IMG/VR virus record: IMGVR_UViG_3300030372_003010
Direction: 5' to 3' (one strand)
DNA from: an uncultured virus (IMG/VR IMGVR_UViG_3300030372_003010)
Taxonomy: Duplodnaviria; Heunggongvirae; Uroviricota; Caudoviricetes
Length of the DNA stretch: 20,000 nucleotides
Below the pieces are notes generated by a model. It made no database searches, had not been told where the DNA came from, and saw nothing but the letters and a program-made list of their open reading frames with translations. This document shows positions 1 through 14,211 of the stretch, in pieces (position 1 is the first letter of the stretch; the number at the start of each line of letters is the position of its first letter). Made by a program: the position numbers and the translations under genes.

Positions 1-3000
1 CAATTATTTTTAACTGTTCCTCAGAAAGAATCACTATATGCAAGTATAAAAAATACTATTCCTAAATTTAAGAATGCTGAGCCTATAACTATAGAGGAAG
101 CATTAGCAGAAGACTTTAGAAGTTATGCAAAAGGTCAAAAGAAATTTAAAGGAATAGTTGGTAAGATATTTAATCTTATTAATAAGTTTCTTAAATGGAT
201 GTATGGTGGAGTAACTAGGACAGATATGACTAGTTTGAGAGATATACCTAGGGTAAAAGAACTGTATAACCAATTATACAAGGGTGAGATACTAGATTTA
301 AAACCTAGCACGCAAAATATATATGAAGATTTCCATGTACTGAATAGCTTACAAAATACTATAAAGCTTACTAAAAAAGATCAAGATAACTTTGACGAGT
401 TTACAATTGATGAGACTAATATTGTTTTAAATACTTTTGATAATATTGTAGCAGATATTATTAAGAGTTCTTCAATATCTAATAATGATCTTAATATATT
501 TAAGAAAGTTTTAAATACAAAGAGTGAGATTCTTTTTGATGCTGTTTATGAGGAGCTGTCAGAAACAAGAGATGGTTTATTTGAACAAGTTGAAAAGTTA
601 AATATTACAGAAGATAGTTCTCCAGAAGATCTTTTTGAAGAAGAAAGACTTTTTGATAAAATTGATCTGCTAAATAAAACATTGAATAATTTTGGAGATG
701 TAACTTTATCACTAGAAGGTAAGCAAAAAACAGGAGTAGTTGCATTCTATCTTAATTCAGGAAGATTTTCATTAGTAAAAGAAATTTATAAGGATGATAT
801 TGCTGATGAAGGTCAATTAGATATAGATGATACAACTTCTGTTGAAGACATGCAGCAGTATAGAGATGATAAAGCTAATTTATTTAATCCTCAAACACTT
901 GCAAGTCAAGACACCTTAAGCTTATTATCTTTAATAACTCAAGTAGAAAAGAATGCTAAAGGCGAGTATACACAAATACCAGATTATTTTGGCTATCCTC
1001 AAGTAGAAGACATAGGAATTATATGGAACAGGGTATCTAAGGTTACAGAAGGTTCATTTAGTTATGCTGATTTTTATAAAAGACTTATAGAAAATTCAAC
1101 AAACTATCCGCAACTTCAGCAGCTAGCAGATATATTAAAACCTCCCGGTGAAGCATATAAAAATAATTCCGAGTTTAATACTGAAACAAATTTGTATCAA
1201 GACTTATCTAAACCAAGAGTTCGTTTTAGACAATTAAATATTATTAAAAGTGTTCTTAGAAGAGAAACTGAATTCACTGAAGAAGTAGCTGAGTTTGATA
1301 TAGGAGTTGCTGATGCATCTTTCTCTACAAGAGGTGTTATAGCAGACTGGACTAATCAATTCGCAACATCTACTAAGTTCACCAATCCTTATGTAGAGCT
1401 TAATGGTTTAGAGCCTGTACTTAATGTTAAAAAAATAATTAAAGACTTTAGTAATTCTAAGACAGGTTTATTTAAAAAGAATTTATCATTACCATTTTTA
1501 AGAGCTTTAGGTATAGCATTAGATCCAACAAGTGCAGAGATACAAGCTGAAGCAGCTAATGTAAATTCTTTCTATTCAGGATATAGAATTGATTTAATAT
1601 TTGATTCAATTAAACTAGTTAATAAAGCTTTGAATTCTGATTCTGTTGCAGATATTTCATCAGCAGAAAAGTTTATTAAAAGTCCTATTGAGTATTTAAG
1701 AAAAGGACTTCCTAAAAATATAAGACTTTCACCGGAGCAAAACAACAATGTTAAAAACAGAATAAATCAATTAGCAGAATTGCAAGTTAAATATTCAGAT
1801 AAGTATTCTAATTTTAGTACAACATTGCCTACAGATGATAGAGTTTGGGAACAGCAAAATGCTAGTGCAATAGTTAGAAGAGTTCAAGCATTAAATAATG
1901 CTGATAACTTTCAACAACTTACAACTCCAGAAGCAGATCCAGATGGTATTTACAAACATATGTACTTTTTAGCTGAAAATAATAATACATTTTCTAAGTA
2001 CTCTCGTATATTGAATTCATTATTTGTATTAGATAATGAAGCAAACTATGGAGAAAGAAGAACTATGTTAGTTGATGGTAAACAAGCCCCTGTTACACTA
2101 GATACATATAATATAGGAGGTACTAAATACATAGATACAGATAACTTCTCAAACAATCAAGGTGCTAAAACATCTAGGATAGAGGTTACTGGTAAGTTTT
2201 TACAAGAGTTAAATAGCATGCTTTTAAATGGAGTAGAGGAGTTTATGAGACATGCTTCTAAGAATACTGCAATGGGAATAGGTGTTAGTAAGATATTTGG
2301 AAATAATACTACGAAACATTTATACATAGATGTAAAAGACTTTGGTCCTATTAAAGGTAATGCTGGAAAATTAAAAGGTGTTGATATAGTTAATGGATAT
2401 CTTAAAGCTGAACTAGAACGTATGTTTAAATATACAAAGTTTAAAGATACAAAGTTTAAAGATTTTTCAGGTTATAATAGAAAGGTTCTTAAGAAGGATG
2501 GTTCAGGTAAATTTATTGAAGCAGGTTCAGCATTTACTATTTTTGATGATATATTAACTGAGGAAGTTCAGAAGGATCTTTATGATATGGTAGATAAAGC
2601 TATAGCAAATAAAACTGTTATGGAATCAATACCTGAAGAACTTCAAGAAAGAGTTAATAAAGACATGCTAGAATATTTTGATAAAGTTGTAGATAATAAT
2701 GTCAAATTATTTAATAAGGCCGGATATGTTTCAGAGCAATTGATAGATATTGTTCAAACACCTGGTATGGCACCATCTATAATAACTAGATCTTTAATGT
2801 CTGCTTATACTTTTAATTCTTTTATACATAAAGTAGAGACCACAATCCTAGGTTATGGTGATGCTGTACAGTACGATCATTCTAAAGAAGAGTTTCATAA
2901 AAGAAATTCTTGGTTAGCAACAGGTGCTAGAAACTTAAGATCTGATATTGATGCACAAAATTTTATTAATACTATTTATAAGTTTAGACATGCTGCTAAA

Positions 3001-6000
3001 CATGGCTATAGTGTAAATCCTTACAACGGGACATTTAATGCAGGTATAATAAAAGAAAAAGTTATTGAAAAATCAGAATACTATGAAGAGTATTTAGATG
3101 CTGTAGCTAATGCTATAAATAAAAGAATTAAGAATAAAAAGAAATCTAAAGAGCTTGCAGAAAAAGTACTATCTGAATATCTAGGTATTAAAGAAGGTGA
3201 CGGTCAAGGTTATATTCCTATTGAGTATTATAGAATGATGCAAGATTTAGCTGGTCTATGGTCTCCTGAACAAGAAGCTTTATACAATGATATAGTTTCA
3301 GGTGTAGAAATAAATCCTGAAGAAGTTACTCAGATGTTCCCTCCTTTAAAGTATCAATACTCAGGAAATCTTAAAACAGAAGGTTTACCTTTAACAGCAC
3401 AGCATAAGTTTTCTTTAACTCCAATAGTACCTGAACTTTTACCTGAAGGTTCTAATCTTTTAAAACTACATGATAGTATGGTTAAGCAAAATATTGCTTA
3501 TTCAACTTTTGAGTCCGGTTCTAAGATTGCTCATTTAGGTACACCAACAAATTTACTTAACGAAGATGGTTCTTATAATGAAGAAGCACAGTTTACTCCT
3601 AATGTTATTTATGCAGACTATCTTAAAAGTCAAGTTAATGTAAATAAAGAATTTAAAGGTAATGTTGTTTTCTCTACTCAGATGAGAAAATTAGTCTTAG
3701 AAGGTTTATTTAATAAAGGTAAGTTAAAGCCTGGAGCAAAATCCATACATGATTCTTATATTAAAAACATACGTGACTATACTGAGTTAGTTGAGTTTGA
3801 GTTTTTAGAAGAGATAGGTTTTGAAAAAAGAGGAGATAAATATTTTATGAAAGATAAATCAAGTATAAGAAACTTGGTTAACCTTGTAAGAAATAGTCTC
3901 TTAAATCAAGATGTTCTAGGAGATCATTTAATAAACATAATAGATATTACTGCTAATAATAATCTATCTTTAGATTTATCTTTACATCCTCAAGCAGATA
4001 GAATAGAGAAGTTAATATTGTCTCTAATCAATAAAAGAATTATTAAACAAAAGTTTAATGGAGAACCATTAGTTCAAATGGCTCCAACATTTGCTGAGGG
4101 AATGTTCTCAGAGCCTGAAAGTAAATTAAAGAAAGGTACTGCTGAATACATTAAGAAACTAAAAGGTAGTAATTTCTTACCAACATATCACGAGACTGTA
4201 AGAGCTAATAAAAAAGTTACTGCAGCTACTAAGGTTGTATTAACTATGCAAGGAGATTTCTTTAATCTTCTAAATATAGAGTATGAAGGAGAAGTGATAG
4301 GCACAGTTGAAAAACTTAATGAGTTACTAAAGGAAGATGACTTTGTAGATAAATACAGAGATCAGATTTCAATAGTAGGTGTACGTATTCCAGTGCAAGG
4401 TCTAAACTCTATGGAGTTTGCTGAAGTATTTCATTTCTTACCACCAGGTAATTCTAATGTAATTATTTCTGCATCAGAGCTAGTTGCAAAATCAGGAGGT
4501 GACTTTGACGTGGATAAATTAACTACATATTTTCCAAATATAAATGAGGAAGGTGCTCTTGTGGGTAAAGCATTTAATTCATTAGCTGAATTGAAAAAAG
4601 ACTTTGCTGAGAGAGCAGATGGGTCTATCAAGTATGATTTAATGAAGCAGCAAAAAGCTGCTATACAAAATAGTATTATAAAAGACTTAAGAAATATTTT
4701 AGAACTTCCTCAAAATTTTGCAAGTCTAATTACACCTAATGCAACTTCATTACTATTACCTATTGCAGAAGAGTTAGCTGAATATGTTATGGAATATAAT
4801 CCTAAGCAATCTTTAATGACTCAAGCTAATGTTAAAGAAGATGGTAAAGAAATTATTAGTCCAACTAGAATTTTTGAAGCAGAGTATAACCTGTATAAAC
4901 ATGAATCAAATAATATAGGTAAAAGAACATTAGGTTTAGGTGCTGTAGAAAATACATTTAATACCTTAATGACAGGTCTAGGTGCATACATGCCTGCTCA
5001 ATTTATGCAAGGGCAAGGTAGAAGCTTAGAAAAAAGAAATAGCAATCTATTCTTAAATCATAATGTTACAAAAGACAAAGCGGGTAATGAAGTTATTTCA
5101 GTATCTAATGAGTATGATGTAAATAATGAAAATAGAGTAGGAGAAGTTATCTCTCAAATGATGAATGGTTGGGTAGATGTTGAAAAAGATGCATGGATAT
5201 TCTACATTCAAGGAAACTATGAGGTTGCACCTCAATTACTTTATTTACTTAAAGCAGGTGTTCCTGTTAGAGAAGCAATATTCTTTGTGTCAAATCCATT
5301 AGTAAGAACATATGTTAAAGAACAACAACTTGCTAACAGTCCCTATAATGAAATGCTAGGTACAAAACCAGCTGAGCCACAATTTGCAAAGTTTAAAGCT
5401 GCAACAGAAACTCTTGCTACAGTAGCTAAATTTGCAGGCAATCCTTATGATGCAAAAAAAGGTATAGGATCAAATAGAGCAAGATATCAAAAAGGGTTAT
5501 CATTAGCTGACAGACATCTTAGAAACGGAGTGTTTCCTTTAAGTAAAATGGAAGCACTTGTTAAGACAGATGTAAATGAATTAACAGATAGTCAAAAAGA
5601 TTTTGCAACTGCTATGTTCTTACATTATCTAGCTATTGAACAACAAATTTCAGATTTAACTAAATTAAAAATAACTATGAATCCTGATACTAACAGTAGA
5701 ACAGGAGGAGCAATTATTGAGCAATCCGAACTTAATATTGAAGAGCTTAAAGGTAGTAGTAAATTAATGCCAGGTATAATTGAAAAATTTGAAAATGATA
5801 GTGTTATTGGTTCTTACTTTAAAAATGATTTATCAGCTAAAATTTTAGAGGCTATATTTCCTTTGAGATTTAATGAAAACTTTGTTTCATTAATGATGTT
5901 AAATAATGAGGAGCTTAAAAAACTATCAAGAATAAAATATGGTACAGTTGACATACAAAAGATAAGCTCATTTTTTAGAGATGAATTTGTAAATTATATA

Positions 6001-7590
6001 TTCCAAAATGTTTTAAGAACTCCTGTAATAAAAGATAACTATAAGAGTTATGTATTAAAAACTAATACTAAAGTTTCTAAAACTATTAAGTTAAACTTTG
6101 GAGCATTTGTCAAAGACGGTGTATTATATACTAATGAAAAAGCATTAGAGAAAGAATTCAAAGATGAACTTTGGGTAAAAGGAAACACAGAGCAAGGTAA
6201 CTATGAATCAAGAGGTTTATATGCATTAAACCCTGCTACATTTAAATCATCAAAGGGTACAAACTTTACTCAGTACAAGCACTTTGTTTTAGAAAGAGAA
6301 ACTTTGAGATCTATCACAAGTATGGAAGATCTTGAGTCTACAACTTTATTTAAAAAAGAACTAAAGAGTATTTCAGAACTAGACCCTACTAAGGGTAACC
6401 CTAAGAAATATGTTTATGAAAAGATACTAGCTAACAAAGCTTTATCTAATATCTTTAATCCATATCATTTGTTTAATGATCCGGTAAATGCATACTCTGT
6501 AGAATACTCACAACTAATGGATAAGTTTGGAGACAAGCTTTCTAAATATACGGTTCTTGAAAAGTTAAAACCTGAAACTAATAAAAAAATAAATAGTTAT
6601 AACTTGTATTTAGCAGAAAAAGATTTTGATAATAATCTATCTACTTTATATAATAAAAACTTAAAAGACTTAGCTAATCCTCAGATACTTAAAGTACCTA
6701 ATTATGAAGATAACTTATATATAAGTGAATTCTTTAGTAGACTTCCTTTAGTAGGATTTTTACAATCCGGTGTATCAGCAGGAAAATATAACTTTACAAA
6801 TATATTAGAACCAAGCGATTATCTATTTATTGTAAAAGACTCTGCTAATAGAATCAATGATTTATTAACAGGGAAAGTTCAATCAGATATGGTTGATATC
6901 TTTAATGGCTTTATGAAGAGTTTTGTAAATGTTAATGATATTAAACCAGGAGCATCAAAAAGAACTAAACCTATATTTAAAGATTACTTAGTTGAGTATG
7001 ATATATTCAAGCCTGATGTAACAGTAGAAGAAACTTCTGAAGATTTAATTGAAGGTGCTGTACCTGGAGTAGTTCTGTATGATGACAGTAAGGATGGTAC
7101 AAAATACTATGAGAACTTAGTAAACAATAATCCAAATACTTTCTTTGTGTATAGTTACTTTTTAACTAATGTTAAAACTACAAATCCTGTTCCTTATAGA
7201 AAGTCTGGATTAATATCTAAACTTTCAGAAGATTTATCAATGGGAATTCCTGTTGGAGTAAATGGATACACAGATAATTTTTCTACCTTTAATCCTGAAA
7301 GATATGATCAGGTAAAAGAAGTGTGGTCAAAAAAGTTTAATACTTTAAGTAAGCTTATAAAAGGTGGTGTCACAATAGCATTACCTAAATCAGGCTTTGG
7401 ATCAACTACAATGCCTAGTGAACTATATATAGATTTATCTAAACAGATGTTGAAGTTTGGAGTTTTAAATCCTGACTCAGCACAATATAAAGATGTAGAA
7501 GAAACAATAGGGGATGTTCAAGGAATATCCGATGCAGAAATAATAACAGAACTAGGATTAGAAGAAGATCCTTTTGTTTGTAAATTTTAA
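1..7590 (+). CDS. Virion-packaged single-polypeptide two-barrel (DPBB) DNA-dependent RNA polymerase, crAss-like type, 5'-partial
   Basis: The frame is open from base 1 (QLFLTVPQKESLY...EEALAEDFRSYAKG...KWMYGG), so the track's start at 199 is internal. The catalytic loop RIPVQG-x~32-SGGDFDVDKL (DFDVD at 4501-4515) matches the DxDxD Mg-binding motif of crAss-like vRNAPs such as phi14:2 gp66. Upstream motifs GDGQGYI (~3196-3216), QHKFSL and FESGSK fit the second barrel. Stop TAA at 7588-7590. Confidence 0.9.
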   Translation, partial: QLFLTVPQKESLYASIKNTIPKFKNAEPITIEEALAEDFRSYAKGQKKFKGIVGKIFNLINKFLKWMYGGVTRTDMTSLRDIPRVKELYNQLYKGEILDLKPSTQNIYEDFHVLNSLQNTIKLTKKDQDNFDEFTIDETNIVLNTFDNIVADIIKSSSISNNDLNIFKKVLNTKSEILFDAVYEELSETRDGLFEQVEKLNITEDSSPEDLFEEERLFDKIDLLNKTLNNFGDVTLSLEGKQKTGVVAFYLNSGRFSLVKEIYKDDIADEGQLDIDDTTSVEDMQQYRDDKANLFNPQTLASQDTLSLLSLITQVEKNAKGEYTQIPDYFGYPQVEDIGIIWNRVSKVTEGSFSYADFYKRLIENSTNYPQLQQLADILKPPGEAYKNNSEFNTETNLYQDLSKPRVRFRQLNIIKSVLRRETEFTEEVAEFDIGVADASFSTRGVIADWTNQFATSTKFTNPYVELNGLEPVLNVKKIIKDFSNSKTGLFKKNLSLPFLRALGIALDPTSAEIQAEAANVNSFYSGYRIDLIFDSIKLVNKALNSDSVADISSAEKFIKSPIEYLRKGLPKNIRLSPEQNNNVKNRINQLAELQVKYSDKYSNFSTTLPTDDRVWEQQNASAIVRRVQALNNADNFQQLTTPEADPDGIYKHMYFLAENNNTFSKYSRILNSLFVLDNEANYGERRTMLVDGKQAPVTLDTYNIGGTKYIDTDNFSNNQGAKTSRIEVTGKFLQELNSMLLNGVEEFMRHASKNTAMGIGVSKIFGNNTTKHLYIDVKDFGPIKGNAGKLKGVDIVNGYLKAELERMFKYTKFKDTKFKDFSGYNRKVLKKDGSGKFIEAGSAFTIFDDILTEEVQKDLYDMVDKAIANKTVMESIPEELQERVNKDMLEYFDKVVDNNVKLFNKAGYVSEQLIDIVQTPGMAPSIITRSLMSAYTFNSFIHKVETTILGYGDAVQYDHSKEEFHKRNSWLATGARNLRSDIDAQNFINTIYKFRHAAKHGYSVNPYNGTFNAGIIKEKVIEKSEYYEEYLDAVANAINKRIKNKKKSKELAEKVLSEYLGIKEGDGQGYIPIEYYRMMQDLAGLWSPEQEALYNDIVSGVEINPEEVTQMFPPLKYQYSGNLKTEGLPLTAQHKFSLTPIVPELLPEGSNLLKLHDSMVKQNIAYSTFESGSKIAHLGTPTNLLNEDGSYNEEAQFTPNVIYADYLKSQVNVNKEFKGNVVFSTQMRKLVLEGLFNKGKLKPGAKSIHDSYIKNIRDYTELVEFEFLEEIGFEKRGDKYFMKDKSSIRNLVNLVRNSLLNQDVLGDHLINIIDITANNNLSLDLSLHPQADRIEKLILSLINKRIIKQKFNGEPLVQMAPTFAEGMFSEPESKLKKGTAEYIKKLKGSNFLPTYHETVRANKKVTAATKVVLTMQGDFFNLLNIEYEGEVIGTVEKLNELLKEDDFVDKYRDQISIVGVRIPVQGLNSMEFAEVFHFLPPGNSNVIISASELVAKSGGDFDVDKLTTYFPNINEEGALVGKAFNSLAELKKDFAERADGSIKYDLMKQQKAAIQNSIIKDLRNILELPQNFASLITPNATSLLLPIAEELAEYVMEYNPKQSLMTQANVKEDGKEIISPTRIFEAEYNLYKHESNNIGKRTLGLGAVENTFNTLMTGLGAYMPAQFMQGQGRSLEKRNSNLFLNHNVTKDKAGNEVISVSNEYDVNNENRVGEVISQMMNGWVDVEKDAWIFYIQGNYEVAPQLLYLLKAGVPVREAIFFVSNPLVRTYVKEQQLANSPYNEMLGTKPAEPQFAKFKAATETLATVAKFAGNPYDAKKGIGSNRARYQKGLSLADRHLRNGVFPLSKMEALVKTDVNELTDSQKDFATAMFLHYLAIEQQISDLTKLKITMNPDTNSRTGGAIIEQSELNIEELKGSSKLMPGIIEKFENDSVIGSYFKNDLSAKILEAIFPLRFNENFVSLMMLNNEELKKLSRIKYGTVDIQKISSFFRDEFVNYIFQNVLRTPVIKDNYKSYVLKTNTKVSKTIKLNFGAFVKDGVLYTNEKALEKEFKDELWVKGNTEQGNYESRGLYALNPATFKSSKGTNFTQYKHFVLERETLRSITSMEDLESTTLFKKELKSISELDPTKGNPKKYVYEKILANKALSNIFNPYHLFNDPVNAYSVEYSQLMDKFGDKLSKYTVLEKLKPETNKKINSYNLYLAEKDFDNNLSTLYNKNLKDLANPQILKVPNYEDNLYISEFFSRLPLVGFLQSGVSAGKYNFTNILEPSDYLFIVKDSANRINDLLTGKVQSDMVDIFNGFMKSFVNVNDIKPGASKRTKPIFKDYLVEYDIFKPDVTVEETSEDLIEGAVPGVVLYDDSKDGTKYYENLVNNNPNTFFVYSYFLTNVKTTNPVPYRKSGLISKLSEDLSMGIPVGVNGYTDNFSTFNPERYDQVKEVWSKKFNTLSKLIKGGVTIALPKSGFGSTTMPSELYIDLSKQMLKFGVLNPDSAQYKDVEETIGDVQGISDAEIITELGLEEDPFVCKF
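2432..2463 (+). repeat. Perfect 15-bp in-frame tandem duplication (ATACAAAGTTTAAAG x2) encoding TKFKD-TKFKD
   Basis: Directly visible at 2432-2446 and 2447-2461, with a partial degenerate copy just upstream. Confidence 0.85.
4501..4515 (+). other. RNA polymerase catalytic DFDxD motif (DFDVD)
   Basis: gac ttt gac gtg gat in frame, preceded by SGG and the conserved upstream R-I-P motif. Confidence 0.9.
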
Positions 7591-7601
7591 ATTAAAAAGA
7601 A

Positions 7602-10600
7602 ATGGCTTGTATAGCGAGAGATAATGCAATAAAGCATCTAATAGATAAAGGAGCAATTGATGATACGAGAAAGATCTTGGATCTAAAACTGTATGAAGAT
7701 CTAAATAAAAAGTTAACTGAGATTGCAGTTAGAAAATACAACTTAGATACATTAGGTAATGAATTGTTTGCCATTAATGCATATGATGCTACATACTCAA
7801 GGCCGGTAACAACTGGAAGAGAACTTACATTCAAGGTAAGACGAGCTGTTCCTAACTCAGTTTTATTTGAGACTTTAGATGAAAAAATAAAAACATACGA
7901 GGAGAGATCTTCACAACCTGTTGTTGTTCCTGAAGAAACTATAGAAGTTGTAGAAGATACTGTAGAGGATACTGTTCTAGAACCAACAGGAGAGCAACTT
8001 GAATTTAACTTCCTAGAAGACAATAGTGTTGAGATAAACTTAGAAGACCTTAAGAGCCAAAGATCTAGACAACTAGGATCTGCAATAGCAGAAAGATTAG
8101 CACTAGGAATGAACTACAACTTCGAGAACATAACAGAGGAGAGAGCTGTAGAGATATTAAAAAGTAGAGTAGTAGGATACAGAGGAGAACCCGCTTTTAA
8201 TTTTGCAGGAACTGTTTATGTAGTAGGAGACAATGTAACGCTAAATACTGTACTACATGAGTTTGGTCATCCATTAATAAGATCAGTAAGACAGTTGAAT
8301 GATAAACTGTATAATAATCTGTACGAGGAGTTGATGGGTACTACTGAGGGGGAAGTTATAGAAGAGGCCGTGCTAGCAGAGTATCCTGAATTAAAAGACT
8401 CACCTGTATTTTTAAAAGATGAAATCTTAACATATGCACTACAACTAAAATCAGCAAACCAAGTAAACAATGAAATAGAAACAAAGGGATTTGATAATGT
8501 TATAAGGAAACTTTTAGCTGCCATTAAAGATTTACTACGAGGTATATTTGGTAGAAAAATAAAAGTCTCCAAAATAAATGTTGACACTACACTAGAAGAA
8601 CTCGGTACCATAATGCTGTCAGATCAAATAGACCTGCAGACAGACATGTTGACTGAAGAGGATGTGGTTGCATATGGAAAAGATTTAATAGAAAGAGTTA
8701 AGGTATTAACTGATAACGCTAAAGCTGAGACTATTAACCAGGCAATCACTGAAATATTTGAAGCTAACAAAGAAGTGTTAATGAATGCAAGGAAGACTAA
8801 GTTAGATCCTGCAACTAAAGAAATATTAAAGAGATCCTTCTTTGAAAAAGATGGTAGAAAACTATTACCTAGTATACAAAAAGATTTATCTAGATATCTA
8901 CGAGACAGTTTAAATAATAAAAACATTGATGAGGCTCTAGAGATTGTGCTAGATGCAGAGGAGAGAAGACTAGAAGATTTAAATAATAAGTCTATAGCTT
9001 TAGTAAGTACATTGGGTGTTATGTCACAGAGTTTTAAAAACATGAACCGTGAATTGGATTTACTATCTAAAAAGAAAAACTTTGGTACTAGATCTGACAT
9101 GGCTATTCTTGGTGTTTACAAAGGTTCATCTCAAAGAATGTATCAACTGGTTAAGGACCTGGATGAGTTATTAAAAAAAGATTTTGAAATAACTTCAGAT
9201 AATGCCTTTAGTGATTTACTTGGTCAGATACGTAATGAAACTATTAGGTCACAAGAAAATATTAAAAAACTATATGAAAGATTTACTAAGTATTTCTTTG
9301 TTGAAAATTCGGGTCATATAAATAAGTTTTTAGAAGAAGAACTAAAAACAGATTTAGGAAATTCTTTAAGTCAACATATTAGTCAAGAAGAGTTTGAAGA
9401 CATTTATGACAAACTTATTAAACAAAAGTTTGATGAGTCTGATGTAGAGTTTTTAAAATCTAAAGGTGTGCCGATAGCTTATGTTGAGCCTTTTTGGAAA
9501 AAGTATCAAGACATGCTTGTAAACTTACCAAAGATAGAGAGTATATTATCAGGGGAGTTTAAAGATGTAAGTATCATTAATAGGATGATTGAATCTTATA
9601 GTATTACAACTAACCCTATAGTTGGTGGATTGTCTAAGTACATTCAAGATTTATATTCAGATGCTACAAATAAAGGTTATAGAAAGTCATTAGAGTTAAG
9701 AAGTAAATTAGAAAAGCTACTGCCTGCTGTGGGATATAGCAAGTCTAATACTAGACAACTGATAGATATGCTAGCTTTTAAAGATCAAGTGTTAGATTTT
9801 GATAAAGAAGGTAACCCTGTTAAATTTGATGTATATTCATTCTTAGATAAGTTTGGAAATGGATGGAGATATGCAGTTGATAAATATAAGTTTGATATTA
9901 AAGAAGCATATACAAAAGGTGATGCAGAAGAAGTTAAGAGACTGAGGAAAGAACAGTATCAGTTCCATAGAGATTATATGTGGGATAACTACACTGAAGA
10001 GTATTATGAAAAAGATGCAATATTTGAGGATGCTGGAGAAGTTGGGATGGAAGCTTGGTTAGATAGAAAGTTAGCCTTAGATAGTTATAACTCAGTAATT
10101 AATAAAGCTACTGATGAACTAGAAAGATTTGAACAATACACTGTTGAGCAAGAAGCTTTTAGAAAGTATAAGCAATTGTATTCAATGCGTGATGAAGATG
10201 GGAACTTAAAGACAGGAAGAGCAAAAGAAAAGGCTGAGATTTTAATTCAATATTCTCAAGCTACTAGAGACTTTCATGAAATGGTTCCTATAAAAGGATC
10301 TTTAGAAGGTGCATTTAAAAACTTTTTAAACTTATTAGAATCTAAAGGTATATCTCAGTATGATGCTAAAGATCAATTGAACCCTGAATGGCAATCTAAA
10401 GTTGATGAATGGACTAAACAAAATACTAAAGTAGTTTATTCACAACAATACTATGAGAGATTATCTCAGCTTTATGATAGAATGAATGAGCTGCAGGAAA
10501 AAGTAGAAGTTGATTCTGATTTTGATGTATCAGCAGCTTATAAAGAAATTAATGACACCTTAAGGTTATTTAAAGATGAACAAGGTCAACCAATGCCAGA

Positions 10601-13538
10601 AGCTTTGGGTGAGGAAAGAATTGCAAGAATAAAAGAACTGCAACAGCAGATTAATAACTATCAAACAAGTGTTGACAAATCATCAGGACTAACTGCAGAA
10701 GAGCAAGCAGAACTTGCTGAGTATATTTTAATGCAAAAGAAAGGTGAGGCTTTAGATGAGGTACAAAAGAAAAGATATGTTGACTTAGTTTCAACTAAAA
10801 GCAAGGGACTATCTGTAGCAGAAGAGATTGAGCTTCAAGGGATTTGGACAGAGCTTAGAGAATTGTCTACTAAACTTCCTACTGAATACTACTTGGATGA
10901 ATTAAACTATCAGTTATCTAGATTTGAGATTGCTCCTGTTAAAGCTGAGGACGCATCTGAATATATTAATAAAGATGAATTCAAGGATCTTGTAAAGAAA
11001 GATGATTTACTTTTTGATTGGTTTAAAGCTAATCATGTAAGTAAAAAATACTTTGGTAAAACTGTATTTAATAGAAACCCTGCTCATAGTATTTCAATAC
11101 CTAGTGATAATAAGATGTTGTTAACAACAGAACTTGTTAATCCTAATACACAAGAAACAATAACTATAAAAGGTGTTCCTAATGCTAGACATTCTAGATT
11201 CCAAGTTAGAGATAAATACTTAAGTATACCTCAAGGTCTTACACCAGAACAAAGAGAAGAATATGTTGGGAAATATATAGATAATAGGGGTAACTATCTA
11301 CCAAGAGAGTATAAGCCGGGTGATAAGTTTAGTGCAAAGGATGATAGATTCATGAATAAAAGATATGCAGAAATGAATCCTGCAGGTGCTGAGTATCAAT
11401 TGCTTGAAACTATTAAAAAGTTTCATTTAGATGTTCAATCTGGAAATAGTAACTATGCTAAGTTATATTTAGACTTACCTAGATATGCAGTTGATGGCAT
11501 AGTAGAATCATTTCAAGCAGGAAAATATGGTGATAGACTTGAACAGTTGAAACAATCAGGTATAGAATTCTTATCTAAGACTACGGGTGCTTTTGGAAAA
11601 TCAACAGAAGACTTTACTAGTAAAGAATTCAACTATGATGAGAAAATGAATCTTGTAAACACAGATTTACGTGGTAATCAAGTAAGCTATATACCAGTTG
11701 ATGGTTTATATAAACTAGATTCAAAAAGAATAGATCCTGATCTTATACAAAACTTAATAAAATACACAGTGTCTTTAGAGACACATAAAACTCTATATGA
11801 GAACTTGCCGTTCATGAATGCAATTAGAGAAACTTTAGAGTCTGATGAAGCTAAGCCTAAAAATATGACTGCTTATGATAAGAGGATTCAAAAGATAAAA
11901 GGTAAACTTCAAAGACCTAATAGATCTGATGCACATAATAACATGTTAGAGCAAGTTAAAAGTTTACTTGACAGAGAATTTTATGGTAAAGTAAATTCAG
12001 CTGCGTCTGAAAGTATGCCACAAATAACTAAGTTAGCAGCAACATTCCAAAGAATGTCTGCACTTGCATCATTAGCACTGAACATTCCATCAGATTTAAA
12101 AAACAAGTATGGTGCAATGGTGCAGATTGCTATTGAAGCATCAGGTAATGAGTGGATTAATCTTAAGAATATGGCTAGTGGTAGACAGTGGGCATTTGAA
12201 GCTATGACTAATTGGTCTTTCATCCCTAAGAATGGTATCTATGCTATAGGACCTGGTTCAGTATCAACACAACTTATTGAACTTATGGATCCTCAGTTTA
12301 AAACTAAAGATGACTTGGGTAGAAGTGTTCAAAGAAGTTTATGGAAAGATTTTGTAAACGGTGAATTCTTATACATGCATAGAAAGTTTGGGGAAATGGA
12401 AGCTGGCTTAACTTTATTTGGATCATTTATAGATGCACAAAAAGTTGATCAGATTATAGATGGTAAAAAACATTCTATAAAATTTAAAGATGCCTGGGAA
12501 CAAGGTGAAGATGGGATATTAAAACTTAAAGAAGGTATTGATGTAGAGTGGAACTATGAACCTATATACCATACACTAGGAGAAGGAGAAACTTTACAAC
12601 AAGTTGCAGATAGATTTGGAATGACCAAGGAAGTATTAATGGCTAAGAATAAATTAAGAAAAGACATAGAAGCTAAACCTGGACAAGAACTTATTATATC
12701 CAAAGCTCAAAATTTTAAAAATTTAAAAACTAAAGTGCAAGGAGTATCACGTAGACTATTTGGTTCTTATGATACATTTGGTCAACCTGAAGGTAACAAG
12801 TTGTTATTATACAGGATGTTCTTCTTTATGAGAAAATGGTTTGTACCAATGTTTCAAAATAGATGGGGAGGAATAATAACCGGGAATAGATATGATTATG
12901 ATGTTGGAGATGTTGGTAAAGGATTTTACCTAGAAGGATTTAGAGGATACTACAAACTTATATCATCTCTTGGTAAAAGATATAACTATCTAAGTACTAA
13001 AGAAAAAGTTGGTATGAAAAAGATGGCTTCAGAAGCACTTGTCATAACTACATTTACTTTATTGATGGCTATGATATTTGGATGGGATGATGATGATGAA
13101 GAAAAGTGGGCAAAGATAAAAGAAAGATCCGGTGCTATAACAGAAGATAACTTTAACATGCCAGGATTCTTAACTAATCATGCTTTGTTATTGATGATGG
13201 GTACATTAGCTGAGACTACAGCTTATATACCATTACCTAAAGTAGCAGGAATTAACTTTGGTTTAGATGATCAGATGTCTATACTTACTAGTACTACAAC
13301 TGCTTTTGGAAATACATTAGGTTTATACGGTCAGATCTTTGCAGATGTTTTAAACATTGCAACTGGTAATGATGCTGCAAGATATAAAAGAGATTCAGGA
13401 CCTTATCCGTGGAAAGAAGAAGGTGACTTAAAGATTGTAAGTAATATATTAAAAGGTGTAGGTATTACAGGTTCTACAGGTGATCCACAAACAGGTATTA
13501 AGAACTTAAGTGCTTCAGGTAGTAAATTGCAAAGATAA
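7602..13538 (+). CDS. Giant internal virion/ejection (cargo) protein with zincin-like HExxH domain, LysM domain and C-terminal hydrophobic helices
   Basis: 1,978-aa ORF starting 11 nt after the vRNAP stop, with an A-rich leader (attaaaaagaaATG). Contains TVLHEFGHP (8256-8270) with a downstream Glu in KDEILTYAL (~8421), a LysM-like segment YHTLGEGETLQQVADRFGMTKEVLMAKNKL...PGQELII (12567-12698), and hydrophobic ALVITTFTLLMAMIFGW (~13035-13085). Its position beside the vRNAP gene matches crAss-like cargo protein clusters. Confidence 0.75.
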   Translation: MACIARDNAIKHLIDKGAIDDTRKILDLKLYEDLNKKLTEIAVRKYNLDTLGNELFAINAYDATYSRPVTTGRELTFKVRRAVPNSVLFETLDEKIKTYEERSSQPVVVPEETIEVVEDTVEDTVLEPTGEQLEFNFLEDNSVEINLEDLKSQRSRQLGSAIAERLALGMNYNFENITEERAVEILKSRVVGYRGEPAFNFAGTVYVVGDNVTLNTVLHEFGHPLIRSVRQLNDKLYNNLYEELMGTTEGEVIEEAVLAEYPELKDSPVFLKDEILTYALQLKSANQVNNEIETKGFDNVIRKLLAAIKDLLRGIFGRKIKVSKINVDTTLEELGTIMLSDQIDLQTDMLTEEDVVAYGKDLIERVKVLTDNAKAETINQAITEIFEANKEVLMNARKTKLDPATKEILKRSFFEKDGRKLLPSIQKDLSRYLRDSLNNKNIDEALEIVLDAEERRLEDLNNKSIALVSTLGVMSQSFKNMNRELDLLSKKKNFGTRSDMAILGVYKGSSQRMYQLVKDLDELLKKDFEITSDNAFSDLLGQIRNETIRSQENIKKLYERFTKYFFVENSGHINKFLEEELKTDLGNSLSQHISQEEFEDIYDKLIKQKFDESDVEFLKSKGVPIAYVEPFWKKYQDMLVNLPKIESILSGEFKDVSIINRMIESYSITTNPIVGGLSKYIQDLYSDATNKGYRKSLELRSKLEKLLPAVGYSKSNTRQLIDMLAFKDQVLDFDKEGNPVKFDVYSFLDKFGNGWRYAVDKYKFDIKEAYTKGDAEEVKRLRKEQYQFHRDYMWDNYTEEYYEKDAIFEDAGEVGMEAWLDRKLALDSYNSVINKATDELERFEQYTVEQEAFRKYKQLYSMRDEDGNLKTGRAKEKAEILIQYSQATRDFHEMVPIKGSLEGAFKNFLNLLESKGISQYDAKDQLNPEWQSKVDEWTKQNTKVVYSQQYYERLSQLYDRMNELQEKVEVDSDFDVSAAYKEINDTLRLFKDEQGQPMPEALGEERIARIKELQQQINNYQTSVDKSSGLTAEEQAELAEYILMQKKGEALDEVQKKRYVDLVSTKSKGLSVAEEIELQGIWTELRELSTKLPTEYYLDELNYQLSRFEIAPVKAEDASEYINKDEFKDLVKKDDLLFDWFKANHVSKKYFGKTVFNRNPAHSISIPSDNKMLLTTELVNPNTQETITIKGVPNARHSRFQVRDKYLSIPQGLTPEQREEYVGKYIDNRGNYLPREYKPGDKFSAKDDRFMNKRYAEMNPAGAEYQLLETIKKFHLDVQSGNSNYAKLYLDLPRYAVDGIVESFQAGKYGDRLEQLKQSGIEFLSKTTGAFGKSTEDFTSKEFNYDEKMNLVNTDLRGNQVSYIPVDGLYKLDSKRIDPDLIQNLIKYTVSLETHKTLYENLPFMNAIRETLESDEAKPKNMTAYDKRIQKIKGKLQRPNRSDAHNNMLEQVKSLLDREFYGKVNSAASESMPQITKLAATFQRMSALASLALNIPSDLKNKYGAMVQIAIEASGNEWINLKNMASGRQWAFEAMTNWSFIPKNGIYAIGPGSVSTQLIELMDPQFKTKDDLGRSVQRSLWKDFVNGEFLYMHRKFGEMEAGLTLFGSFIDAQKVDQIIDGKKHSIKFKDAWEQGEDGILKLKEGIDVEWNYEPIYHTLGEGETLQQVADRFGMTKEVLMAKNKLRKDIEAKPGQELIISKAQNFKNLKTKVQGVSRRLFGSYDTFGQPEGNKLLLYRMFFFMRKWFVPMFQNRWGGIITGNRYDYDVGDVGKGFYLEGFRGYYKLISSLGKRYNYLSTKEKVGMKKMASEALVITTFTLLMAMIFGWDDDDEEKWAKIKERSGAITEDNFNMPGFLTNHALLLMMGTLAETTAYIPLPKVAGINFGLDDQMSILTSTTTAFGNTLGLYGQIFADVLNIATGNDAARYKRDSGPYPWKEEGDLKIVSNILKGVGITGSTGDPQTGIKNLSASGSKLQR
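12567..12698 (+). other. LysM peptidoglycan-binding domain inside the giant protein
   Basis: 44-aa segment that fits the LysM consensus Y-x-V-x-x-G-D/E-T-L-x-x-I/V-A-x-x-F/Y-G-x(5)-L-x-x-x-N ... PGQ-x-L-x-I. Confidence 0.85.
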
Positions 13539-13687
13539 TGGAAATAATACTTAGTATATATTGGCCACATGATAGATGTCTTTTAGGATGGGAATATATA
13601 GGTCCAACAGATGATGAACCTATAAATTCCTTTATTATACATTTAACTATTATAACTCTTACCCTTCATCTGCAGGGTAATTCATAG
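13538..13687 (+). CDS. Small hypothetical protein, 49 aa (MEIILSIYWPHDRCLLGWEYIGPTDDEPINSFIIHLTIITLTLHLQGNS), not in the ORF track
   Basis: The ATG overlaps the upstream stop (TAATG at 13536-13540), the usual sign of translational coupling. Open to TAG at 13685-13687, and it fills an otherwise empty gap. Confidence 0.65.
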   Translation: MEIILSIYWPHDRCLLGWEYIGPTDDEPINSFIIHLTIITLTLHLQGNS

Positions 13688-13859
13688 TAGCAAATCTTTT
13701 AAATTTATTTAAATTTCTTTTGTTTAAACCTTCAAGATTTTCTACATCTACTTTGTAAATTTTAAAAGTTTTACTTTCATCTTCAGTAACTAGTGCATAC
13801 TTATGATCTGAAGATACATATTTTACATAAACAGTTTTGTTATTATGTTTTAGTTTCAT
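13659..13859 (-). CDS. Small hypothetical protein, ~66 aa (MKLKHNNKTVYVKYVSSDHKYALVTED...)
   Basis: Track ORF 13659..13889. The internal ATG at 13859 is preferred because it has an A-rich leader (aaaaaataagaATG) and only a short overlap with the upstream gene. Confidence 0.6.
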   Translation of the reverse strand: MKLKHNNKTVYVKYVSSDHKYALVTEDESKTFKIYKVDVENLEGLNKRNLNKFKRFATMNYPADEG

Positions 13860-14022
13860 TCTTATTTTTTTTGGAATTAGATAAGTCATCTCTCATATCA
13901 GAGAGGATTTTGTTAAACATCATTTTCTCATTACTATTAAGCTTATCATACCATGATGCAAACTCTCCTCCTTTAATTTGAAGATATTCTTTATGTAAGT
14001 CATATAAGCTTCTACTTTTCAT
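13843..14022 (-). CDS. Small hypothetical protein, ~59 aa (MKSRSLYDLHKEYLQIKGGEFASWYDKL...)
   Basis: Track ORF 13843..14055. The track start lies inside a terminator hairpin, so the ATG at 14022 is more plausible. The product looks helical and protein-like. Confidence 0.55.
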   Translation of the reverse strand: MKSRSLYDLHKEYLQIKGGEFASWYDKLNSNEKMMFNKILSDMRDDLSNSKKNKNETKT

Positions 14023-14035
14023 AATATAAATATAT

Positions 14036-14061
14036 AAAAAAAGGAGGACTTGCATCCTCCT
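14036..14061 (-). terminator. Rho-independent terminator-like hairpin 1
   Basis: The minus strand reads AGGAGGA-TGCAAG-TCCTCCT followed by a T run: a perfect 7-bp stem (14042-14048 / 14055-14061). Confidence 0.7.
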
Positions 14062-14137
14062 CTTTCCCTAATTAATCAAATAAATAATATGAGACAGTTA
14101 AATATAATAATTATTTTATAAATAACTAAATTTTTTT

Positions 14138-14168
14138 AAAAAAAAAGAGGAGGTTTTTACACCCCCTC
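14138..14168 (-). terminator. Rho-independent terminator-like hairpin 2
   Basis: The minus strand reads GAGGGGGT-GTAAAA-ACCTCCTC-TTTTTTTTT: an 8-bp stem whose single non-Watson-Crick pair is a G-U wobble only on the minus-strand RNA. It lies ~33 nt downstream of the DUF932-like gene stop. Confidence 0.8.
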
Positions 14169-14180
14169 TCTTGAACTAAT

Positions 14181-14211
14181 CAAATATATTATAATAATAT
14201 ATTAAAACAAA
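14181..14211 (-). promoter_or_regulatory. Candidate Bacteroidetes housekeeping-sigma promoter (-33 TTTG / -7 TAnnTTTG)
   Basis: On the minus strand: TTTG (14211-14208), a 19-nt spacer, then TATATTTG (14188-14181). This matches the TTTG-N19-21-TAnnTTTG consensus, but the AT-rich context makes a chance match possible. Confidence 0.45.

Follow-up and report, generated by a model that had tools for sequence, protein, structure and literature searches.

The window, that is, the whole 20,000-nt stretch analyzed (IMG/VR record IMGVR_UViG_3300030372_003010, Caudoviricetes), carries two large open reading frames in succession on the plus strand. The first (1..7590, +), here called Y, is open at its 5′ end and encodes the C-terminal 2,529 aa of a putative virion RNA polymerase (vRNAP) with a full length of 3,503 aa, in the role of crAss001 gp50 and phi14:2 gp66. 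The second (7602..13538, +), Z, encodes a 1,978-aa protein resembling phi14:2 gp65 and crAss001 gp49, the last member of the proposed chain; X denotes the member upstream of the vRNAP. A sequence-only reading had drawn attention to a lone cysteine in each frame at their facing ends. A residue recount located exactly one in each, residue 2527 (third from the end) of the first and residue 3 of the second, and none of the additional internal cysteines that this reading had named as telling against its proposal. Both codons are TGT. They encode Cys3501 of the full-length vRNAP (7579..7581, +), the proposed C-terminal coupler, and Cys3, the only cysteine of Z and the proposed N-terminal coupler (7608..7610, +), and they lie 29 nt apart across the gene junction, as first described. 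The computed probability that both lone cysteines fall inside facing 10-residue windows by chance is p ~2e-5. The minus-strand cytoplasmic proteins are rich in cysteine, as had also been observed, with 24 Cys in 1,911 codons (1.26%) over the six minus-strand genes of the window, including 7 in PolB, 5 in DUF932, and 3 in the nuclease.

The vRNAP, a very large protein, contains the sequence GGDFDVDK, which matches the DFDxD catalytic motif. The DFDVD motif is located at 4501..4515 (+), and its residues D2475, D2477, and D2479 are invariant in 30 aligned homologs. A tblastn search with the vRNAP matched 17 Crassvirales-type phage records at 22–34% identity over parts of the protein (best E 5e-17); there was no Pfam or PHROG match to the vRNAP and no PDB match to gp66 by phmmer. 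The GDFDVD motif and the tblastn matches bear out the initial naming of 1..7590 as a vRNAP, and its assignment as a crAss-like virion RNA polymerase of the gp66/gp50 type holds at the level of sequence comparison. The protein ends in an acidic tail (7489..7587, +), a proposed docking tail, which is predicted to form two short helices followed by a low-confidence end and has the consensus GISDxEI...LEEDPFKC. A fold search with the last domain of the vRNAP returned only weak phosphatase-like matches with E values of at least 0.002.

Residues 1–105 of Z (7602..7916, +) are predicted (pLDDT 83) to form a compact N-terminal α/β module, a proposed docking module, in which Cys3 is positioned just before a helix spanning residues 4–16. 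The best-scoring segment of Z against phi14:2 gp65 is residues 1–85 (34% identity over 85 aa, E 1e-7), and the C-terminal region adds a weak match (E 0.005). A tblastn search of the named phages with Z was negative at 1e-5. Z further contains an HExxH zincin-type motif (8256..8270, +; placed by reference to L084, a 96% relative), a LysM domain (12570..12698, +; PF01476, E 7.5e-6, above the curated cut-off), and a possible membrane helix (13023..13079, +); as scored on L084, no other 19-mer of X, Y, or Z is strongly hydrophobic. The gp65 similarity and the HExxH motif identify Z as the gp65/gp49-like gene that adjoins the vRNAP. In a fold search of the Z module the best match was a POTRA domain (Z 5.3, rmsd 2.9, 67 aligned residues), and there was no match among viral structures at E≤0.001; phi14:2 gp65 ranked 31 with the highest TM-score (0.52) and an E value of 0.82, and the module was placed in no fold family. 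Bacterial lipoproteins have a hydrophobic signal peptide before the cysteine; in Y and Z a hydrophobic N-end is absent and the cysteine is at residue 3.

From residue 975 onward, every residue of the database protein P0123 (3,503 aa) is identical to the window ORF, and C3 and C3501 are its only cysteines. C3 lies in the N-terminal part that the sequence-only reading could not inspect. Looking upstream, as the sequence-only reading had suggested, led to a second junction, X→vRNAP, with the same pattern. In L084, X is a 2,411-aa gene upstream of the vRNAP whose only cysteine is third from the end; X, which lies outside the window, is tentatively assigned as gp67/gp47-like by its position in L084 and by indirect BLAST links. 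Together, X, Y, and Z of L084 contain 4 Cys in 7,892 aa, all at facing ends, where the rate in the cytoplasmic proteins of the window would predict ~99. The terminal cysteines at both ends of the vRNAP are invariant in aligned homologs, so that it is not Cys-free in the Schitoviridae manner, and the C-terminal residue is found at −1 to −3 in 120/120 homologs listed. For Z, 11/120 homologs listed have no N-end cysteine and appear truncated or mis-started.

A survey of ~390 related loci comprised 152 of the window's clade and 237 further IMG/VR loci, with counts taken as distinct 25-mers within each set from the best 80 matches per scan; single window fragments as scan queries retrieved 2 and 0 loci, and a GTDB scan two short contigs. 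The counts cover related sequences, so that only a few fusion, insertion, and rearrangement events stand as independent. Over the ~390 loci (best 80 matches per scan), 617/617 distinct predicted linking ends along X→vRNAP→Z carry a cysteine, compared with 1/275 free ends. In the window's clade (152 loci, best 80 matches per scan) the cysteine is present at the X C-end in 88/88, the Y N-end in 83/83, the Y C-end in 73/73, and the Z N-end in 79/79, and at the free X N-end and Z C-end in 1/70 and 0/73. In locus L053, X has an N-end cysteine under the first-Met start call. The ends of the upstream C2-like gene have a cysteine in 0/72 and 0/10 cases (same clade and matches), and the C1/C2 cargo proteins (gp45/gp46-like) are not members of the chain. 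The IMG/VR loci (best 80 matches per scan) gave 47/47 and 53/53 linking versus 0/8 and 0/37 free ends for the X|Y+Z gene arrangement, 30/31 and 31/31 versus 0/29 and 0/18 for X+Y|Z, and 32/32, 31/31, 40/40, and 30/30 versus 0/4, 0/33, and 0/2 for the three-gene type. The internal Cys rate is 0.05–0.19% in gut phages compared with 0.004% in the window's clade. Among 22 named phages, 59/60 linking ends and 0/43 free ends have a cysteine. In cr273 the last cysteine lies 50 residues from the annotated end, and crAss002 and cr110 obey the rule only if translation is taken to begin at an internal Met. In phi14:2, which has an aerobic host, gp67, gp66, and gp65 contain 4 Cys in 5,398 aa, all terminal (gp67 C1797, gp66 C3 and C2179, gp65 C3), and g065–g067 were detected in particles by MS according to the sequence-record notes. 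The terminal cysteines are thus conserved in homologs and are gained and lost in pairs across related loci, contrary to the second finding that the sequence-only reading had named as refuting its proposal.

In gene fusions of X+vRNAP or vRNAP+Z only the matching Cys pair is gone. The sole miss in the IMG/VR set (the 30/31) is L271, a 5,547-aa X+Y+Z fusion with no terminal cysteine. Its C4118 was considered as a junction remnant and rejected, being located inside a zincin-like segment (E 7e-17). Of 66 X+Y fusions, 5 have a cysteine within ±100 aa of the mapped junction, against a background of 9.8. Extra passenger proteins have a cysteine at both ends, including the ~510-aa passenger of L001/L002, the inserted phi17:2 gp038, and a 752-aa protein of csAssE-Sib. 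The first 64 aa of the L002 passenger are 44–45% identical to Z N-ends of other phages, and phi17:2 gp038 shows no detectable relationship to the passenger of L001. A further conserved cysteine, at −148 in X of L001/L002, is unexplained by the coupler model. The terminal-Cys pattern also occurs where no vRNAP is seen, in phi17:2 and a cyanophage. The chain has 2–4 members and is independent of gene adjacency; in crAss001 the rule is kept though the genes are rearranged, with gp47 on the opposite strand. The placement of cysteines at joining ends and their loss in fusions suggest that these proteins are hooked head-to-tail into one train, and conservation, pairing, and fusion loss support the original proposal that a terminal Cys pair links consecutive cargo proteins. 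Of its two candidate chemistries, a disulfide is most likely the link, and a shared metal looks less likely because no conserved His is present near either cysteine.

At the level of the ends themselves, the N-end modules form clusters that run across chain positions. The tail motif of the vRNAP and the module type of Z vary together: 67 type A modules are paired with a PF/PL-x-C tail, 9 of type B/C lack it, and 10 junctions, the window's own included, fit no module type. Charges at the facing ends are −4.2 (vRNAP C-end) and +0.2 (Z N-end), and +0.7 (X C-end) and −1.6 (vRNAP N-end); charge complementarity is suggestive at most. The top APC-MI between the vRNAP tail and the Z N-end module was 0.25 compared with 0.16 ± 0.03 for shuffles, which was treated as uninformative because the rows are related and the top pairs scattered.

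A constraint on the DNA at the gene junction (a ribosome-binding site or overlap), or chance, would fit the dominance of TGT (78–95 of 88–96 per end) and the closeness of the codons in the window. However, TGT also accounts for 20/24 Cys codons in the window's other genes, TGC is used as a coupler codon as well, and the pairs persist with genes on opposite strands or 8 kb apart. The spacing of 11 to 41 nt in all frames and the use of both codons therefore indicate no DNA-level constraint, and this explanation can be practically dismissed. Joining of the pieces by a peptide bond, through trans-splicing or native-ligation chemistry using the cysteine, is compatible with the natural fusions, which show that one polypeptide is functional. 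Split inteins have an intein domain, a fixed first-residue nucleophile, and a C-end His-Asn. Here the cysteine is not a fixed first residue after processing, as it occupies positions 2–8 with 17 residue types at residue 2, no His lies near the C-end cysteine, and the Pfam scans matched no intein family, which makes such ligation highly improbable. Each terminal cysteine could also act alone, in homo-oligomer links, portal or scaffold attachment, terminal modification, or as a packaging signal, since each cargo protein is presumably packaged in several copies and fusion removes the termini and hence any terminal signal. Such a role would leave unexplained that a cysteine is never seen at the N-end of the first member or the C-end of the last, that a triple fusion needs none, and that passengers have exactly two, and we regard it as very unlikely.

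Pairing through a shared Zn or Fe ion, with one cysteine per end plus Asp/Glu or with four cysteines from two chains, would account equally for the fusion pattern, would work in the reducing cytoplasm and in anaerobic hosts, and could draw on a vRNAP tail rich in Asp/Glu. In the aligned ends, however, neither a conserved His nor a second cysteine was found near either cysteine (His in 2/230 C-ends and 21/252 N-ends), the cysteine drifts between positions 2–8 at N-ends and −1 to −10 at C-ends, and unfolding in the channel would probably break a metal bridge built on two cysteines; a metal link, for which Asp/Glu may still serve as ligands, is improbable. The same low likelihood is given to non-covalent docking with no covalent train in the resting virion, the disulfide being only transient, only periplasmic during ejection (DsbA-type), or a redox switch for docking. 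Assembly in the reducing cytoplasm, the folded module and helical tail predicted at the ends, and the joint switching of module and tail types are in its favor; against it, other crAss001 virion proteins carry disulfides in purified particles, where inter-subunit disulfides are described in the accessible part of PMC10172136. This alternative differs from disulfide-locked docking mainly in timing.

The best-supported reading, to which we assign a probability of about 0.7, is that the ends are paired by small docking modules and locked by a disulfide. A split polyprotein would thereby leave the capsid as a single ordered string, to be severed in the reducing cytoplasm. The large ejected cargo would be one functional polyprotein, X→(passengers, usually vRNAP)→Z, split into 1–4 genes. 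As the survey shows, the upstream piece at each split ends in a short helical tail with a cysteine, and a small module with a cysteine at position 2–8 opens the downstream piece. Tail and module would dock at packaging, fixing the order and a 1:1:1 ratio, and oxidation, either in the released virion or in the periplasm, would join the two thiols in a disulfide. This covalent bond would then hold the string while the docking interface unfolds in the <50 Å tail channel, and thioredoxin-type reduction in the cytoplasm would free the vRNAP; the near-absence of internal cysteines would prevent wrong pairing. We infer the disulfide chemistry, the ejection order, and the cytoplasmic release. The anaerobic setting of gut phages raises the question of where oxidation takes place. 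In the sections available of bioRxiv 2020.03.07.982082, recombinant gp66 alone is active in DTT, and the link is therefore not needed for catalysis. A broader reading is somewhat favored, in which an N-end docking module with cysteine and a C-end Cys tail form a general, portable coupling system. Any protein so equipped could then join a train held by disulfides, with a gp47-like first and a gp49-like last member as its fixed ends; the train would pass the tail as a single string of up to ~10,000 residues, and reduction in the host would set its members free. The vRNAP would be one passenger of a system that predates or outlives it (phi17:2, csAssE-Sib, cyanophage Lbo-JY46).

Comparable arrangements exist elsewhere. 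Docking domains of PKS/NRPS enzymes are short C-end and N-end elements that fix the order of giant proteins and replace fusion; unlike the proposed phage coupler they are non-covalent and cytoplasmic, and neither the sequence nor the fold searches turned up a match to them. In disulfide-tethered two-chain proteins, a disulfide holds cargo to carrier outside the cell and is cut in the cytosol. Their chains derive from one cleaved precursor, whereas here separately translated products would join end to end, with plug-in passengers. The T7 and P22 ejectosomes are non-covalent assemblies, and we know of no terminal coupler in them. What they share with the proposed train is that internal proteins exit in sequence by way of a short tail (summarized in PMC10172136, PMC13434306). 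The giant ejected polymerases of Schitoviridae (N4 gp50, DEV gp71) share beads-on-a-string domains and a strong depletion of Cys, which is attributed to their transit of the periplasm (PMC11445570, PMC13434306). In contrast to the present proteins, they are T7-type polymerases on one polypeptide with essentially no cysteine (0.00075%), and each N4-like vRNAP is one chain with hardly any of it (PMC11445570); here the string is split, with a Cys pair at each break.

The window genes are relatives of the Crassvirales RNAP-associated cargo (crAss001 gp47/gp50/gp49; phi14:2 gp67/gp66/gp65). The accessible portions of PMC10172136 and bioRxiv 2020.03.07.982082 place it in the virion, describe that it partly unfolds when ejected and is occasionally fused into one polyprotein, and make no mention of cargo cysteines or of a link between the three proteins. 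The crAss001 proteins gp47/49/50 were detected in particles by MS. In the available text of PMC10172136, passage through the tail requires partial unfolding of the cargo, and Bayfield and co-workers consider its order likely set by packing and mutual interactions. No description of a cysteine-coupled ejection train was found in literature searches or in the accessible text of PMC10172136, whose reduced versus non-reduced MS data may bear on it, and a 2026 paper calls the relation of the three cargo proteins open (PMC13434306). Crassvirales are the most abundant human-gut phages, and the ordered exit of giant proteins through a <50 Å channel is an open question (PMC10172136; PMC13434306). The cysteine pattern gives a specific answer to it, with named residues. 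Such a coupler would explain the differing fusions of the three genes across families and the order kept despite gene rearrangement, and it predicts redox-sensitive infection. It also offers an annotation rule, by which a Cys-poor protein with a cysteine at both ends would be an ejected passenger.

The visible part of the virion RNA polymerase (vRNAP), its C-terminal 2,529 residues, is encoded at 1..7590 of the window and is followed at 7602..13538 by Z, the 1,978-residue last member of a proposed chain of ejected giant proteins. The sequence-only reading had claimed a single Cys in each of these proteins and many in the minus-strand products, and a recount confirms both points: the codons lie at 7579-7581 in vRNAP and 7608-7610 in Z, and six minus-strand genes (PolB, DUF932, PD-(D/E)XK nuclease, and three others) total 24 Cys in 1,911 codons. 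The vRNAP carries a DFDVD motif and matched 17 Crassvirales-type records in a sequence search. Its full-length form, database protein P0123, includes the window vRNAP exactly plus 974 further N-terminal residues, and its only cysteines are C3 and C3501. Z contains a LysM domain and an HExxH motif as well as a single hydrophobic stretch, and its best match to phi14:2 gp65 covers residues 1-85 of Z (34% identical). The last folded vRNAP domain (7045-7482, plus strand) is Cys-free; Foldseek relates it weakly to phosphatase folds of the DUF442/DUSP type (E 0.002-0.1). Only short ORFs of 62-76 aa lie at 13539-14201, where the late genes and the replication genes converge.

The suggestions that the terminal Cys are kept across orthologs and that the pattern recurs upstream of vRNAP are both borne out. 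Among the best 120 of 471 vRNAP homologs, P0123 included, a Cys lies at -1 to -3 from the C-end in 120/120 and C3 is present in 108/120 (108/109 of those of at least 3,200 aa), with five internal Cys in 405,981 residues. For Z (best 120 of 164), 109 have a Cys within the first 15 residues, 104 of them at position 3; a Cys at the C-end occurs in one, internal Cys number 17, and the 11 lacking the N-end Cys appear truncated. The upstream gene, X, is seen in L084, a locus 96% identical to the window in vRNAP: X (2,411 aa) has its sole Cys at -3, vRNAP has C3 and -3, Z has C3, and no Cys occurs in what is visible of the gene before X. Across the clade set of 152 loci (L010-L161, L001/L002 omitted, distinct termini counted, gene roles reassigned manually in 10 loci with interruptions or truncations), Cys marks the linking ends at the X C-end (88/88), vRNAP N-end (83/83), vRNAP C-end (73/73), and Z N-end (79/79). 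It occurs at 1/70 X N-ends and 0/73 Z C-ends, the free ends, and at 0/72 and 0/10 termini of the gene before X; the chain proteins hold 38 internal Cys in 912,069 residues. ORF ends created by breaks within chain genes (L030, L065, L086, L087, L092, L122, and L124) lack Cys and are a built-in control.

Gene fusions follow the same pattern. Three further IMG/VR scans, with the best 80 of each kept, gave 237 loci, grouped by query rather than taxonomy. In loci with a vRNAP+Z fusion (p-crAssphage type), Cys is found at 47/47 X C-ends and 53/53 fused N-ends, and at 0/8 X N-ends and 0/37 fused C-ends. Where X and vRNAP are fused, the linking ends score 30/31 (C-end) and 31/31 (Z N-end) and the free ends 0/29 (N-end) and 0/18 (Z C-end). 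The three-gene type gave 32/32, 31/31, 40/40, and 30/30 linking ends versus 0/4, 0/33, and 0/2 free ends. The sole miss, L271, is an X+vRNAP+Z fusion of 5,547 aa without terminal Cys; this single gene (L271:2819-19462) has three internal Cys, none at ends or junctions. Together the clade set and the 237 loci give 617/617 linking versus 1/275 free ends, with the L271 C-end reassigned to the free ends only after its triple fusion was seen; these are not independent trials, because the windows differed slightly (C-end 10 or 12 residues; N-end Cys at most 7-8 residues from the first Met, or directly following another Met within the first 20 or 45), duplicate termini were dropped inside each set but not across sets, and the sequences are related. 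At the mapped junction of 66 X+vRNAP fusions, Cys was present in 5, versus 9.8 expected from background, and 4 of these 5 are one lineage.

Named phages agree. In phi14:2, gp67 (X) ends in Cys, gp66 (vRNAP) has C3 and C2179, and gp65 (Z) has C3, with no other Cys in the three. The crAss001 proteins keep the pattern even though gp47 is encoded on the opposite strand: the single Cys of gp47 lies at -3, those of gp50 are C5, C1334, and a third at -9, and gp49 carries C5. gp45 and gp46 lack terminal Cys. C1-like cargo (crAss001 gp45 and neighbours; L008:21988-24516, L003, L004, L009:28984-30246) has internal Cys in pairs spaced by 8-9 residues, which may form disulfides within the molecule. Counted over 22 named genomes, for which we set the chain order from annotation, homology, and gene order and scored IAS and four genes split by intron or break at their outer ends, Cys is present at 59/60 linking and 0/43 free ends. 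The miss is cr273, whose last Cys lies at -50. crAss002 and cr110 fit this count only if translation starts at an internal Met; the annotated starts (L163:16653, crAss002 gp33; L171:12942, cr110 gp_23009) lie 32 and 14 codons upstream of a Met-Ser-Cys inside the ORF that agrees with the starts seen in relatives, and are probably mis-called. vRNAP fragments on short contigs of a Bifidobacterium and a Micavibrio MAG (L174, L175) are probably mis-binned phage DNA.

Chains with other memberships also occur. L001 and L002 (L001:2075-3619, L002:2130-3632; also L413 and L414) have a four-member chain; in L001 and L002 a passenger of ~510 aa with Cys at both ends sits between X and vRNAP. It matched no Pfam family, and residues 1-64 of the L002 passenger are 44-45% identical to the Z N-ends of L072-L075. 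The chain of Cellulophaga phage phi17:2 consists, in order, of a 1,957-aa protein with Cys as its last residue, a 517-aa one with C4 and C516, and a 1,914-aa one with C3; no DFDxD motif was found in the 50 kb fetched, and the accessible text of PMC7886860 describes the transcription block as absent from this group. csAssE-Sib is arranged in the same way, its passenger having 752 aa and its Z lying ~8 kb off. The annotation splits this Z into two overlapping ORFs of 281 and 1,885 aa (L417:14238-20640), probably one gene with a break, since the N-end Cys is in the first only. The two-member chain of cyanophage Lbo-JY46 (L416:8429-21335) comprises a protein of 1,552 aa ending in Cys and a last member of 2,748 aa with C4 and, at 122-210, a GNAT domain; the 41 kb fetched contain no DFDxD motif. 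The last members of these three chains match gp49/gp65, and the first were assigned from position alone.

Each break in the string from X to Z is marked by a Cys pair, a strict rule, and the feature is real and order-wide. We favor a disulfide-linked chain, with a probability of about 0.7. In AlphaFold2 models, Z residues 1-105 are predicted to form a compact module (pLDDT 83) with C3 immediately before the first helix, and the vRNAP C-end a folded domain with two short helices after it and then a tip of low confidence, which carries the Cys. A metal bridge between the paired Cys would also join the ends but is unlikely; neither a conserved His nor a second Cys was found near either site. It is very improbable that each terminal Cys has an independent role. 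The vRNAP tail motif changes with Z module type (67 versus 9 junctions, 10 unclassified), and among 389 clustered N-end modules vRNAP, Z, and passenger ends share clusters in two cases. Residue 2 is highly variable, the N-end Cys ranges from position 2 to 8, and codon choice and spacing at the junction vary. Docking of the ends with only transient oxidation is as unlikely as a metal bridge. According to the accessible part of PMC10172136, the cargo must partly unfold to pass the tail, and crAss001 virions contain inter-subunit disulfides elsewhere in the particle; a covalent link makes sense because unfolding in the tail would break a plain docking contact.

Against the disulfide chain stand cr273, an additional conserved Cys at position -148 of the L001/L002 X protein, the anaerobic hosts, which bring the site of oxidation into question, and the higher internal Cys frequency in gut-dominated sets (0.05-0.19%, L176-L412, versus 0.004% in the window's clade, L010-L161), a difference that perhaps reflects how oxidising the host periplasm is.

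The proteins themselves are of known kinds, and as far as searched the coupling principle is undescribed. No description of the cargo cysteines was found, although most subscription papers lay outside the search and prior mention is possible; the searchable text of the gp66 study (bioRxiv 2020.03.07.982082) mentions neither Cys nor disulfide, and the accessible parts of PMC10136315, PMC5512222, PMC7886860, and PMC13434306 do not mention cysteine. In N4-like phages, the accessible text of PMC11445570 and PMC13434306 indicates, the equivalent string is one Cys-free polypeptide, whereas here it is split, with a Cys pair at each break. In a disulfide-linked chain the ends would dock when the proteins are packaged, the paired Cys would oxidise, the cargo would pass the tail as one string, and reduction would release the linked proteins.
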